In this document: positions 1-6,000 of the stretch, piece by piece
How positions within the stretch are numbered: position 1 is the first letter of the stretch
Layout of the letters: each line of letters starts with the position of its first letter
Source of the DNA: Escherichia coli
GTDB taxonomy: Bacteria > Pseudomonadota > Gammaproteobacteria > Enterobacterales > Enterobacteriaceae
DNA length: 58,594 nucleotides
Reading direction: 5' to 3' (one strand)
NCBI RefSeq assembly: GCF_030013205.1
Contig: NZ_CP122650.1
Position numbers: made by a program

Positions 1-3000
1 ATGAGCTATCAAATTCTGACAACCACAGCGGCCAGTATTACTGACCTGAAAAAAAATCCTATGGGAACCGTAGCTGAAGGTGAAGGGGACGCTGTTGCGA
101 TCCTGAACCGAAACGAACCGGCGTTCTATTGCGTTCCACCAAAACTTTACGCCTACTATCGGGAACTCGCTGAAGATGCTGAGTTAAACGCTGTTGCTGA
201 TGAGCGCATGAAAAACCCGGAAATTGTGAAGGTTAACCTGGATCGATAGGAATTTAAATCCCCAAAAGACTAAAAAAGCACCACAAAACGGATATTTCTT
301 CAACACCCCTTGTGCACCATATGAGCGGAAACGACTATTAAACAGGATGACACTGATTGATACAGGGTATGAATGGCGGTTTTTTGCTCCGTTTCCGGTA
401 AAATGGACGCAACTTCCCCTCTGCGGCTCTCAGCCGCACACCTGCTGTCGTGCCAGTCGCTCATGCATCAGGACCAGCTCTGCCAGTCGGTAACCCCGCT
501 TCAGCCCCGTAAAACGCATCTGACTTCCGCACAGAATGCACTTCAGCGGGTCAACCTTCAGTAACCTCTGATACATCCCTCTCCACCTGATTTGCATCGC
601 CGTCTTTCTCACCGTCTCCGTTATGACGTACACAACTTCTTCCAGTAAGCGGCGCTTCACCGGACTCAGGAAACCGTAGTACCTCACCATACGGAACCCC
701 TTATCTGCTACATGCCAGGAGAACCTTTCCATGAACTCATCTCCACTCATCAACAGGTATTCTTCCCGTTTTGTACGGTGACTGTTGTAACGCAGACCGA
801 TTTCATCCTGACCGGCATAATGCTCCAGCCGACTCATCGGCACCGGTGGCTTTTTCAGGTAAGAGCCGAAGTACACCGCCACATGTGTGGCGTTATCCAT
901 CACCCTGGATATGTTGACATTCCAGCCGCGGCGGTAATGCGTGTCCAGGAAGCAATTCCAGTCCCGTTTGCTGTTTCCTTCCACTGCCAGTTCATCCGGT
1001 ATTACCAGCTCCGGGTATTTCCGGGACAGTAGCCGCGTTATCCGGTAACGCCACATGCTCATCACCTTACGGGCGTAAAAATGAAGATTTTTCCAGGTGT
1101 GGCCCGACGTCACACCACCGGCAGTTGTCGATAAATGGATATGCGGATGCCACTGCTGGTCACGCCCCCATGTGTGGATCACCGTGAATATCCCCGGCTC
1201 CACATCTGTCTGATGGCAGATTTCCAGTATCACATCCGCTGCAATGCGGCTCATCTCTGCCAGTAACCACCGGTTGTGGAACACCAGGGACCAGTACTGG
1301 CAGGGAAGTGTGAACACAATATGCTGCCACGGGCAGTCGGGGACCAGGCTCAGCAGATACTGTATCCACTGTGCGCCAGCCTTCACTCCGCAGTGCGGGC
1401 AGGAGCGACTTTTACACCGGAAGCAGACCTTTTTTGTGTGGCAACAGTCCGGAGATGAACAGCACCACTGTGTGTACCCCATCAGCGTGGTTCCGCACGC
1501 CATGATTTTTGTCACCGACTCAATGACTACCGGACGCACTGAACCTTCCGGTTGTTTCTCCAGCCAGTTAAGCCAGCGGTTTCCCTGCTGAAAAATGTCG
1601 GCAAAACGGGGAAGCATCAGAAGGGCGGGGGGACTCCGTCCGGCCAGTGAACCGTGCCACACTCCGGGCAGTACATGCCGCCGGCACTGATACCGGCAAG
1701 AATGGTTGCAAACTCCCGCTCCGTACAGCGGGCTATTTCCGGATACCCTTCGTCATCGACACGAACAAACCAGAAGACCAGCTTTTTGTTTCCTGCATCC
1801 AGAAAGAACGGAATACCCAGGTCAGCGCAGCACTCAACGGCATCGTCAAAATTATCAAAGCGCAGAACTTCAGCGTCTTCTTCGTCAAAAAAATCATCCG
1901 GATGAAGTTTCACAACATAGCGGGGAAGTTTGCTTCTTTGTGGTGCGGGTTTGCGTTTACGGGGTTTAGCTGAACGGGCCATATAACTACCTGAAAGACA
2001 ATGACATTATCTTTTTTTATAACGGTAATTCCAGACCATGACAAGCCGCAGCCGCCAGGCTGCCTACTCGATCGATAGGAATTTAAATCCCAAAAAGATT
2101 AAAAAAACACCCAAAAACGGATGTTTATTCAACACTGCCTGCGTGCCATGAGTGCACCGCCATCAATTAAATGGATCTTATCGAGTGATACTGTATATCA
2201 CTGATGGTTTTTTTACTCCATTCCCCTGAAAATGGACGCAACTTCCCCGATGCGGCTCTCAGCCGCACACCCGCTGTTGCGCCAGTGGCTCATGCATCAG
2301 GACCAGCTCTGTCAGACGGTAGCCCCGCTTCAGCCCCGTAAAACGCATCTGACATCCGCACAGGATGCACTTTAGCGGGTCAACCTTCAGTAACCGCTGA
2401 TACATCCCTCTCCACCTGATTTGCATCGCCGTCTTTCTCACCGTCTCCGTTATGACGTACACAACATCTTCCAGTAACCGGCGCTTCACCGGACTCAGGA
2501 AACCGTAGTACCTCACCATACGGAACCCCTTATCCGCCACATGCCAGGAGAACCTTTCCATAAACTCATCACCACTCATCACCAGGTATTCTTCCCGTTT
2601 TGTCCGGTGACTGTTGTAACGCAGACCAATTTCATCCTGACCAGCATAGTGCTCCAGACGGCTCATCGGCACCGGCGGTTTTTTCAGGTAAGAGCCGAAG
2701 TACACCGCCACATGTGTGGCGTTATCCATCACCCGGGATACGTTGACATTCCAGCCCCGCCGGTAATGACTGTCCAGGAAGCGATTCCAGTCCCGTCTGC
2801 TGCTTCCTTCAACTGCCAGCGCATCCGGTATCACCAGCTCCGGGTATTTTCGTGACAGTAACCACGTTATCCTGTAACGCCACATGCTCATCACCTTACG
2901 GGCGTAAAAATGAAGGTTTTTCCAGGTGTGGTCTGGTGTCACGCCGCCGGCCGTTGTCGACAGGTGAATGTGCGGATGCCACTGCTGGTCACGTCCCCAT

Positions 3001-6000
3001 GTGTGGATGACCGTGAATATCCCCGGCACCACATCTGCCTGGCGGCAGATTTCCTGTATCACATCCGCAGCAATGCGGCTCATCTCTGCCAGTAACCACC
3101 GGTTGTGGAACACCAGGGACCAGTACTGGCAGGGAAGTGTGAACACAATATGCTGCCACGGACAGTCGGGAACCAGACTCAGCAGATACTGTATCCACTG
3201 TGCGCCAGCCTTCACTCCGCAGTGCGGGCAGGAGCGACTTTTACACCGGAAGCAGACCTTTTTTGTGTGGCAACAGTCCGGAGATGAACAGCACCACTGT
3301 GTGTACCCCATCAGCGTGGTTCCGCACGCCATGATTTTTGTCACCGACTCAATGACTACCGGACGCACTGAACCTTCCGGTTGTTTCTCCAGCCAGTTAA
3401 GCCAGCGGTTTCCCTGCTGAAAAATGTCGGCAAAACGGGGAAGCATCAGAAGGGCGGGGGGACTCCGTCCGGCCAGTGAACCGTGCCACACTCCGGGCAG
3501 TACATGCCGCCGGCGCTGATACCGGCAAGAATGGTCGCAAACTCCCGCTCCGTGCAGCGGGCTATTTCAGGATACCCTTCGTCATCGACACGAACAAACC
3601 AGAAGACCAGCTTTTTGTTTCCGGCATCCACAAAGAAGGGAATATTCAGGTCTGCGCAGCACTCAACGGCATCGTCAAAATTATCAAAGCGCAGAGCTTC
3701 TGCGTCTTCTTCGTCAAAGAAGTCATCGTCGTGAAGCTTCACGACATAGCGGGGAAGTTTGCTTCTTTGAGGGGCAGGTTTTCGTTTACGGGGTTTAGCT
3801 GAACGGGACATATAACTACCTGAAAGACAATGATATTGTCTGTTTTTATAACGGTAATTTCAGGCCATGACAAGCCGCAGCCGCCAGGCTGCCTACTCGA
3901 TGGTATGCCTGCGATCAATGCCAAACGTGTTTACCGGATCATGCGCCAGAATGCGCTGTTGCTTGAGCGAAAACCTGCTGTACCGCCATCGAAACGGGCA
4001 CATACAGGCAGAGTGGCCGTGAAAGAAAGCAATCAGCGATGGTGCTCTGACGGGTTCGAGTTCTGCTGTGATAACGGAGAGAGACTGCGTGTCACGTTCG
4101 CGCTGGACTGCTGTGATCGTGAGGCACTGCACTGGGCGGTGACTACCGGCGGCTTCAACAGTGAAACAGTACAGGACGTCATGCTGGGAGCGGTGGAACG
4201 CCGCTTCGGCAACGATCTTCCGTCGTCTCCAGTGGAGTGGCTGACGGATAATGGTTCATGCTACCGGGCTAATGAAACACGCCAGTTCGCCCGGATGTTG
4301 GGACTTGAACCGAAGAACACGGCGGTGCGGAGTCCGGAGAGTAACGGAATAGCAGAGAGCTTCGTGAAAACGATAAAGCGTGACTACATCAGTATCATGC
4401 CCAAACCAGACGGGTTAACGGCAGCAAAGAACCTTGCAGAGGCGTTCGAGCATTATAACGAATGGCATCCGCATAGTGCGCTGGGTTATCGCTCGCCACG
4501 GGAATATCTGCGGCAGCGGGCCTGTAATGGGTTAAGTGATAACAGATGTCTGGAAATATAGGGGCAAATCCAATGAATAGATGGTGGAGAAGAATGGTAC
4601 GCTGTCGAAAAAATCCAGACTGGGCGAAGCGTTCAGCTATGTACTGAATCAGTGGGATGCCCTCTGTTATTACAGTGATGACGGTCTGGCGGAGGCGGAT
4701 AATAATGCTGCGGAAAGAGCGCTTCGTGCAGTCTGTCTCGGAAAGAAAAACTTTATGTTCTTTGGCAGCGATCACGGCGGCGAGCGTGGAGCACTGTTGT
4801 ACGGGCTGATCGGCACCTGCCGTCTGAACGGTATCGATCCGGAAGCGTATCTGCGCCATATCCTGAGCGTACTGCCGGAATGGCCTTCCAACCGAGTTGA
4901 TGAACTCCGGCCATGGAACGTAGTACTCACCAATAAATAAGCGTCAATACGGTGCTCCGTTGACGCTTACGAGCATCTTCATCTTATTACCGAAAATTTA
5001 GTACATTATGCAAATTTTCAGCCCCGCAATTGAGAGCAACTTCAGCAGCCTTGCCGCTTAATGATGCCCTTGAAACATCGCGGAAAATCCAATGCCGACC
5101 TCATGAATATAACAGTGGAATACAGCCGAACGAATCGGTTAACAGATACTGGGGACAATCAAAATTGTATCCCATTTCTGTTGACCACAACAGACCTTTA
5201 TTCTTGTTTTTTTGACTGTGTTGTGGACTGTACTGCAATGTTCCTTTCAGCAGAAAAATTAATATCAGAGTAATATTTTGAGTGTTTTATTAGCTAATTG
5301 TGCACGCGTCAGTCGCGATTGCACGATTAGCTAATGCAAGGGGCGCGCTAAAATATGAATATAAAAGAGCAGCTATGCCAGCCTGTAGTTATTTATATTT
5401 CTGCAGGCAGGGCTGAGCTGCGCTTATATAAGTTATAGCTCAAACGCTAAAACAGAAAAACGCGCCACACCAAATTAGGTTGTCAGTTGATGGGGGGGCT
5501 TATAGCTTTCACATTGCGTGTGGAGTGGTGACAATAAAAGTATCTTGAGGTCATTAATCGTGAAAAGACTAGTGTTTATTTCTTTTGTTGCGCTGTCCAT
5601 GACAGCGGGTTCCGCAATGGCTCAGCAAGGGGATGTTAAATTCTTTGGTAACGTATCAGCAACTACCTGTAATTTGACACCACAAATAAGTGGCACTGTA
5701 GGAGATACCATTCAGCTTGGTACTGTTGCACCAAGCGGAGCTGGTCGTGAAATTCCTTTTGCACTGAAGGCTTCTTCAAATGTTGGCGGTTGTGCTTCCT
5801 TGTCCACTAAAACAGCTGATATAGCTTGGAGCGGGCAGTTAACCGAAAAAGGTTTTGCTAATCAAGGGGGGGTGGCAAATGATTCATATGTCGCTCTGAA
5901 AACCGTGAACGGTAAAACACAGGGGCAGGAGGTTAAGGCGTCGAATAGCACTGTAAGTTTCGATGCATCAAAAGCAACTACGGAAGGTTTCAAATTTACT

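Follow-up and report, generated by a model that had tools for sequence, protein, structure and literature searches.

A head-to-tail tandem of two diverged IS91 variants on a porcine Escherichia coli plasmid, probably formed by insertion of one at the terIS end of the other

The insertion sequence (IS) IS91 was first discovered on alpha-haemolysin plasmids (PMC3214074), and its prototype (from plasmids such as pHly152; X17114) is a solitary element 1.83 kb long carrying orf121 and tnpA. Here we describe two directly joined IS91 copies, A and B, in a 58.6-kb window, the window being the whole stretch of DNA analyzed, i.e., NZ_CP122647.1 from end to end: plasmid unnamed4 of the porcine enterotoxigenic E. 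coli (ETEC) ETEC4079 from Belgium. The window also carries the genes for the F18 fimbriae (fed), AIDA-I and alpha-haemolysin (hlyCABD), as well as an IncFII repA and a RepB replicon, and given where IS91 was first found, the setting of these copies is therefore the classical one. The window copies resemble the prototype in their size, their two genes, the HUH/Y2 transposase with tyrosines Y249 and Y253, the terIS CTCG lying behind a palindrome, the tetranucleotide at oriIS and the association with hly. Unlike the solitary prototype, two lineages are present in the window, and they are fused end to end.

IS91 is known to target 5'-CTTG and 5'-GTTC beside oriIS, while GTCC (about 5%), CTCG (about 1-4%) and CTGG (0.34%; Table 2 of that paper) are minor targets in vivo; cleavage at terIS occurs at 5'-CTCG, the substrate which inserts is a bottom-strand single-stranded circle carrying a terIS-oriIS joint, and double-stranded circles also arise in vivo (PMC13181058). 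In a database survey reported there, CTCG ranked as the third commonest in silico target, a rank which goes unexplained in the available part of the text (PMC13181058). The joint of the circular intermediate (Garcillan-Barcia 2001; PMC13181058) has the same sequence as the joint in the window, but the latter is fixed in the plasmid and connects two variants instead of the two ends of one excised element. One-ended transposition of IS91 and IS1294, in which terIS is read through, is active in arrays of this kind (in L027, for example, as described below), but read-through copies a single template and yields identical units, and not a joint between elements 8% apart; in principle, the joined pair might move as one unit by the same process. 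Helitrons are also HUH rolling-circle elements forming tandem arrays with precise end-to-end joints (PMC5876387), but they are eukaryotic, encode a helicase and have other targets and ends, and their arrays are usually read as concatemers, whereas the empty and filled sites available for IS91 show insertion at a resident end. In the (IS)2 dimers of IS30, IS21 and IS3-family elements, two ISs are likewise adjacent, and the transposase acts on the site made by their joined ends; these dimers, however, involve DDE enzymes and a joint between two inverted repeats with a short spacer, and are unstable reactive intermediates, whereas the terIS-oriIS joint of IS91 belongs to single-strand chemistry and is inherited stably.

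Copies A and B abut head to tail in the same orientation with zero spacer, and on the plus strand of the window both read from oriIS to terIS, their genes being on the minus strand. The true ends of the element (ATCGATAGG...CTACTCG, 1829 bp) were set by the flanks of more than 25 copies in the window and in 20-odd related loci (designated here by L numbers), and the junction reads CTACTCG/ATCGATAGG, where the slash marks a joint. An earlier note on this DNA had placed the junction at CTACTCGA/TCGATAGG and the tandem at 243-3897: the tandem itself and its direct joining in one orientation hold, but the true joint lies one base further to the left, and the pair extends slightly further, from 242 to 3899. 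The CTCG closing terIS of A doubles as the tetranucleotide flanking oriIS of B. Upon folding the DNA, the terIS hairpin (arms GCAGCC and GGCTGC) was found 7 nt before the cut in both copies, while for the oriIS ends, folded in the single-stranded state, no structure surpassed those of shuffled sequence. The same A-type/B junction is present (at least 99.5% identity over 600 bp) in 15 other plasmid records, which are independent assemblies from the UK, Switzerland, Japan, and Belgium and, wherever the record names a source, are pig-associated. Two abutting homologous units of 1.8 kb cannot be put down to chance. A promoter and terminator scan of the junction gave nothing above expectation; a terminator-like hairpin with a T-run on the minus strand at 2105-2126, in the oriIS region of B downstream of its tnpA, is of a kind no more numerous than in shuffled sequence, and it might shield orf121 of A from read-through transcription.

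Both units have the hallmarks of IS91. TnpA of A and TnpA of B match NCBIfam NF033538 (transpos_IS91) with 288 and 287 bits, respectively (cut-off 125), and TnpA of A matches Pfam PF04986 (Y2_Tnp, 1.5e-38) and PF14319 (Zn_Tnp_IS91, 1.6e-18). Both proteins have HPH at residues 157-159 and YFGSY at 249-253, the positions published for the HUH motif and the tyrosines of IS91 (PMC5714925), and in both copies the stop of orf121 and the start of tnpA overlap by 1 nt (base 1617 in A, base 3446 in B), a described IS91 feature (PMC13181058). The terIS sequence GCAGCC-GCCA-GGCTGC followed by CTACTCG is present in all four full-length copies in the window (A, B, E, and F; a BLAST search with the first unit as query also returned four fragments) and in every copy sampled, and no target-site duplication was seen at the IS91 copies examined. 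The NCBI annotation pipeline (PGAP) names TnpA of A "IS91-like element IS91" and that of B merely "IS91 family". Indirect evidence, namely intact genes under purifying selection and the identical, recent copies B and F, suggests that these elements may be capable of transposition.

The two units differ at many positions, as the earlier note had claimed. In the full pairwise alignment, 146 of the 1830 columns differ (92.0% identity), and the differences run throughout the element instead of being confined to a short patch: the divergence amounts to 25.5% in the oriIS-side non-coding region, 5.7% in tnpA, 6.8% in orf121 and 5.7% in the terIS-side non-coding region, with only one near-identical stretch of about 300 bp. 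The peptides which had been quoted are present (HPDDFF versus HDDDFF in Orf121; ILEICHQTDVEPGIF versus IQEICRQADVVPGIF in TnpA). As regards the identity of B with copies E and F, F is indeed identical, but E differs by 2 nt near terIS and encodes the same proteins. Synonymous divergence (dS) between A and B is 0.2-0.3 and the ratio of non-synonymous to synonymous divergence (dN/dS) about 0.1, which indicates that the two are old, separately functional lineages. When 19 copies from eight plasmids were compared, a "pure" A type could be defined, identical in L003 and L004, which differs from B at 175 sites (tnpA: dS 0.30, dN/dS 0.07; orf121: dS 0.43, dN/dS 0.08); B is 90.4% identical to it, i.e., below the 95% isoform cut-off of PMC13181058, which was set against X17114. 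A-type and B-type copies each occur solo elsewhere. The two types, both with intact gene pairs, are long-separated lineages, both kept functional, rather than a duplicated single copy.

Copy A consists of the pure A type plus a run of 29 consecutive informative sites in the B state, a run which was obtained in 0 of 200,000 permutations. The same tract, of about 300 bp, is present where A stands alone, in the sibling plasmid NZ_CP122939.1 (L017) and in L023, and therefore need not have arisen within the tandem. The search for breakpoints proposed earlier brought to light conversion tracts in both directions, 150-450 bp long: a B tract in copy 1 of L004 (alignment columns 254-702), a tract reaching column 1503 in the A copy of pEC571_2, an A-type patch in the B copies of the sibling (columns 959-1108) and the two A-type sites of E; pP136-5 (L012) carries a single-breakpoint hybrid of A and B. 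Gene conversion and crossing-over between the lineages are thus frequent and short-tract, and do not account for the tandem. The two B copies of NZ_CP122939.1 (31725-33553 and 39137-40965) are mutually identical and share their A-type patch of nine sites, which lies immediately beside the place occupied in A by the B-type tract; this suggests one reciprocal exchange followed by homogenization of the copies within the plasmid.

The order of events can be read from the DNA on the terIS side of the pair. In 30 plasmid records, a terIS is joined to ATTTAACG-hlyD (the sequence right of terIS leading into hlyD begins ATTTAACGTAAC), and the terIS is A-type in 24 of them and B-type in six. Solo pure A-type copies stand at ATTTAACG in p727A3-135K (L025, China) and, truncated by IS26, in p1RM10740 (L024, USA); a solo copy the same as A of the window stands between stbD-CTGG and ATTTAACG in pW1316-2 (L023, France) and in the sibling NZ_CP122939.1 (100% identical). 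CP122842.1 and CP057092.1 (L020 and L021) read CTTG/pure A/pure B/ATTTAACG-hlyD. Along with these two, which carry A upstream, the records with a B-type terIS at ATTTAACG comprise copy F of the window and L022, which are rearranged or truncated, L019, which is a mosaic of A and B, and OQ401028. Judging from these sequences, A/ATTTAACG and A/B/ATTTAACG form an empty and filled pair at a single locus; since B lies between the CTCG of A and the former right flank of A, with no duplication, A would be the resident and B the newcomer. The survey of related plasmids called for in the earlier note thus recovered the tandem in both its empty and its filled states, and of the two origins put forward there, the insertion of one variant precisely at the end of another is the one supported (24 records empty; L020 and L021 filled).

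We therefore favor, with a probability of about 0.68, an origin in which a B-type IS91 was placed by the rolling-circle transposase directly 3' of the CTCG closing terIS of a resident A-type copy, which stood beside the haemolysin operon (flank ATTTAACG-hlyD). TnpA normally cuts after the CTCG of terIS to end excision, and after a target CTTG or GTTC to insert the circle; if the CTCG of terIS with its neighboring hairpin were usable as a target, the product would be terIS(A)-CTCG/oriIS(B), the same as the circle joint. The anatomy, the empty and filled states, the exchange of flanks described below and the conversion tracts are seen directly in the sequences, whereas the catalysis of this joint by TnpA is something we infer from the published biochemistry of IS91; the place of its origin, in this lineage or in another from which recombination brought it, is likewise a matter of inference.

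Several points weigh against this origin. Insertion 5' of the oriIS of a resident B, at its tetranucleotide, gives an identical joint, so that the direction has to be judged from the relative frequency of the two solo states, and this among records which are non-independent. The solo states may be derived rather than ancestral if IS91 excises precisely. It is equally conceivable that recombination brought the pair into the window from a plasmid resembling CP122842.1; A matches the pure A type exactly throughout its last 390 bp, and such a crossover would therefore go unseen. At a second locus, with terIS flank GTTTTTCTTATC, solo A, solo B, and hybrid states are all present and the order of events is not readable. 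Lastly, a preference for a resident terIS over other CTCG sites is hypothetical.

The reverse polarity, with an A-type newcomer inserted at the tetranucleotide flanking oriIS of a resident B, is improbable without being negligible. TnpA does nick at the tetranucleotide/oriIS boundary, and the 1899-bp product in L027 was rejoined at the CTTG beside its own oriIS, so this site is used; the solo state on the hlyD side, however, is A-type in 24 of the 30 records, with pure A on three continents, and the B-type exceptions are mostly those with A upstream or those which are rearranged, truncated, or mosaic, as listed above. The head-to-tail geometry is also what would be expected of read-through, at which the earlier note had hinted, or of a concatemer of one element which then diverged in place or was overwritten by conversion, and same-variant arrays with 0-3 differences (L008, L009, and L015) as well as a true read-through duplication (L027) do exist. 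The latter shows 0 differences between its units, whereas A and B are 8% apart, with 146 differences element-wide and dS of 0.2-0.3 under purifying selection, their identical termini measuring 21 nt and 41 nt; each lineage is also found solo elsewhere, an A copy on its own is the earlier state according to the flanks, and the conversion tracts seen span 150-450 bp and not 1.8 kb, all of which makes such an origin very unlikely. The same can be said of the other origin proposed earlier, an old tandem after which the remaining copies underwent gene conversion: with 175 sites between the pure types, dS of 0.30-0.43 and both types solo, conversion has only left patches, and short two-way patches cannot explain the likeness of B, E, and F.

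Homologous recombination is rampant among IS91 copies, as can be seen from the L012 hybrid and from the inversions and unit loss which distinguish the window from its sibling, and the double-stranded circles known to arise in vivo (PMC13181058) could in principle be integrated in the Campbell manner. As the origin of the joint, however, recombination has little to recommend it: Campbell-type integration of a B circle predicts reciprocal chimeras with one shared crossover point (A-left/B-right, then B-left/A-right), whereas B is purely B-type, both ends of A are A-type and in L020 and L021 a pure A stands beside a pure B, without chimeras, while unequal crossing-over requires a pre-existing terIS/oriIS joint. 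It is likely to be the way in which the joint spread between contexts. Finally, an artefact of assembly, whether a misjoin induced by repeats or reads of excised circles, might be suspected on a plasmid with six IS91 copies or fragments and with IS91-bounded inversions relative to the sibling. It is scarcely credible here: reads of circles would yield A/A or B/B and not A-terIS/B-oriIS, the other joint on the plasmid differs in sequence (CTCGATTG), and the same A/B joint recurs in 15 other records from four countries.

The presumed insertion of B beside A was followed in the lineage of the window by further rearrangements. Here the DNA beyond B is no longer ATTTAACG; it begins with ATGGTATGCC, from the right-hand part of an IS2. 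In the intact IS2 (L010, L012, L013, and the sibling), ATGGTATGCC is preceded by GGCAGAACTTG, and the sibling has the uninterrupted IS2 target GAACTTG/ATGGTATGCC; in the window, the GGCAGAACTTG bases flank oriIS of F, the terIS flank of which is ATTTAACG-hlyD, the ancestral flank of A. B and F have thus swapped flanks, splitting one IS2 target. Whole-plasmid alignment shows that the segment from terIS of A to the IS2 site is inverted with respect to the sibling, with B and F at its ends, and the contiguous B/IS2 junction is unique to the window's own record. The simplest route would have four stages: A/ATTTAACG would have become A/B/ATTTAACG, a further B-type copy would then have entered IS2 at CTTG in the opposite orientation, and recombination between the two identical inverted B copies would have flipped the intervening segment, so that B gained the IS2-right flank and F the old ATTTAACG flank of A. 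The A/B pair itself, once formed, would have been passed on, and homologous recombination between the numerous IS91 copies of these plasmids would have carried it from one context to another. Other IS91-bounded differences from the sibling indicate that these arrays are in flux: a further segment is inverted, and one array unit has been lost at 31484-32961.

The precision of the joints is a general feature. The internal junctions in the 12 tandem-bearing records sampled are all terIS-CTCG/ATCGATAGG without any spacer, the terIS of L007 being mutated to CTTG. Ahead of the outer oriIS ends stands CTTG or GTTC in F, a 250-bp fragment in the window, L003, L004, L005, L007-L009, L013, L015, L020, L021, L025, and L026 (CTTG in the case of F and the fragment), GTCC in E and L010 and CTGG in A, the sibling, and L023. 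The window has 150 CTCG sites, of which no more than five close a terIS, and yet two of its six oriIS ends abut a terIS, which is far above what random use of a target class accounting for 1-4% would give. As for the CTGG flank of A, the intact stbD reads on as CTGG/ATGACCTATG in L003 and L011, whereas in the window it is cut at codon 81 by oriIS of A, and stbE and three small open reading frames (ORFs; about 1.9 kb) are missing. Since stbDE and the small ORFs are followed by GTTC/IS91 in L004, L011, and L019, the CTGG flank is more likely to result from a secondary deletion with its endpoint precisely at the IS end than from a primary insertion.

IS91 arrays are not rare. A 600-bp junction probe found a full-length match in 161 of the 1652 IS91-bearing plasmid records (about 10%) and in 179 complete E. 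coli genomes, of 1475 matching the IS91 junction probe, of 5426 genomes; both the plasmid and the genome records are non-independent. The mixed arrays sampled include A1/A2/B/A2 (p15ODTXV), A2(interrupted)/B/A2 (pRHB16-C13_4), A/B (pEC571_2) and a divergent, deleted copy joined to B' in O121 and other plasmids of the Shiga toxin-producing E. coli (STEC) type, and the same-variant arrays B'/B'/B', B'/B' (Shigella) and that of pJSWP006_1. Many of the STEC-type plasmids (L006, L016) carry a third, more divergent IS91 lineage (about 84-86% identity), internally deleted and fused in head-to-tail fashion with a B'-type copy, and these arrays account for most of the matches at 94.0-94.3% to the junction probe.

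Read-through on such arrays is documented by NZ_CP122724.1 (L027), where positions 2645-6442 consist of a 1899-bp tandem duplication, each unit comprising B and 71 nt from the start of the neighboring A copy. It starts right after the CTTG beside oriIS of B and ends right after an internal CTTG of A, which A of the window also has (309-312) and in place of which B has CCTG. This is the signature of an event which began at oriIS, ran past terIS, used the next CTTG as a surrogate terminator and was rejoined at the site of the initial nick; it indicates that TnpA acts on these arrays, and its product is unlike A/B. The possibility that A/B had itself moved as one read-through unit was considered for L020 and L021 and rejected: they share the right flank and differ on the left, which points to recombination or deletion, although in other cases the pair may have moved as a unit. 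Searches for IS91 tandems or arrays, or for terIS as a landing site, returned no explicit description, although subscription journals may hold an earlier mention. Mendiola is said to have reported in 1994 one-ended transposition products of IS91 with tandem donor copies.

This natural pair of empty and filled sites means that the end of one IS91 can serve as a landing site for another, which fits single-strand cut-and-join chemistry, and landing at IS91 ends is likely to be behind the frequent CTCG "target" in database surveys. More tentatively, and with rather more doubt than conviction, the IS91 transposase may preferentially home to resident IS91 ends, that is, to the terIS CTCG with its hairpin and to the tetranucleotide/oriIS nick site, and mixed arrays may be active, recurrent rolling-circle products and not rare accidents. 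If this were true, arrays would be hubs for gene conversion between isoforms, read-through co-mobilization and plasmid inversions, the CTCG "third target" of the 2026 in silico survey would be explained, and a tractable bacterial model for Helitron-type array formation would be available. In practice, annotation pipelines and isoform surveys which assume single copies will miscount IS91, and the arrays are a visible driving force of isoform exchange by gene conversion, of read-through duplication, and of the large inversions which reshuffle the F18, AIDA-I, and haemolysin genes on plasmids of pig pathogens. The value of the finding is modest and lies in the mechanistic point: the elements are known, the plasmid is public, its mobile-element anatomy is routine and the biology ordinary, while the arrangement and its comparative reading may be new in a minor way.

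Table 1. Position of the IS91 copies and neighboring features in the window
Feature	Position	Strand	Remarks
stbD, truncated (Phd/YefM-type antitoxin)	1..241	+	ORF and annotation; last 4 nt CTGG (238-241) adjoin oriIS of A
IS91 copy A, A-type (canonical IS91-like), 1829 bp	242..2070	-	oriIS end 242, terIS end 2070
tnpA of A, HUH/Y2 rolling-circle transposase, 395 aa	430..1617	-	NCBIfam, Pfam, motifs
orf121 of A, 121 aa	1617..1982	-	stop shares 1 nt with tnpA start
B-type gene-conversion tract within A	1387..1680	.	outer limits 1349-1685; 29 consecutive B-state sites
terIS core of A	2048..2070	+	palindrome GCAGCC-GCCA-GGCTGC (2048-2063), then CTACTCG; cleavage CTCG 2067-2070
IS91 copy B, B-type isoform lineage, 1829 bp	2071..3899	-	oriIS end 2071, terIS end 3899
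tnpA of B, 395 aa	2259..3446	-	20 residues differ from TnpA of A
orf121 of B, 121 aa	3446..3811	-	5 residues differ from Orf121 of A
IS2 right-hand part, begins ATGGTATGCC	3900..4572	+	terIS-side flank of B
Remnant of second IS91 array	31484..32961	-	B terIS part, B oriIS part, mosaic fragment
IS91 copy E, B-type apart from 2 A-type nt close to terIS	36031..37859	+	oriIS flank GTCC
IS91 copy F, identical to B	49536..51364	+	inverted relative to B; terIS flank ATTTAACG-hlyD; oriIS flank IS2-left...CTTG
IS2 left-hand piece, 31 bp	51365..51395	-	ends in target CTTG; partner of 3900-4572

Copies E and F are direct repeats around hlyCABD (about 41283-48531), i.e., the classical IS91-flanked haemolysin unit, which can be deleted by recombination between IS91 sequences (PMC3214074). 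In the remnant of the second array, the terIS part of a B copy (31484-32026) is followed by the oriIS part of a B copy (32027-32564) and by a mosaic fragment of A and B (32563-32961); the joint is CTCG/ATTGATAGG, the third base of oriIS being changed from C to T, and the sibling NZ_CP122939.1 has fuller equivalents of this array at two sites. The 31-bp piece of IS2 beside F adjoins the 250-bp fragment of a B-type oriIS end (51396-51645), the flank of which is ...GGTTATCTTG. In CP122842.1, a full B copy stands at the CTTG of the GGTTATCTTG flank, together with about 500 bp more of IS2, which indicates that the window carries a deletion at 51365-51645.

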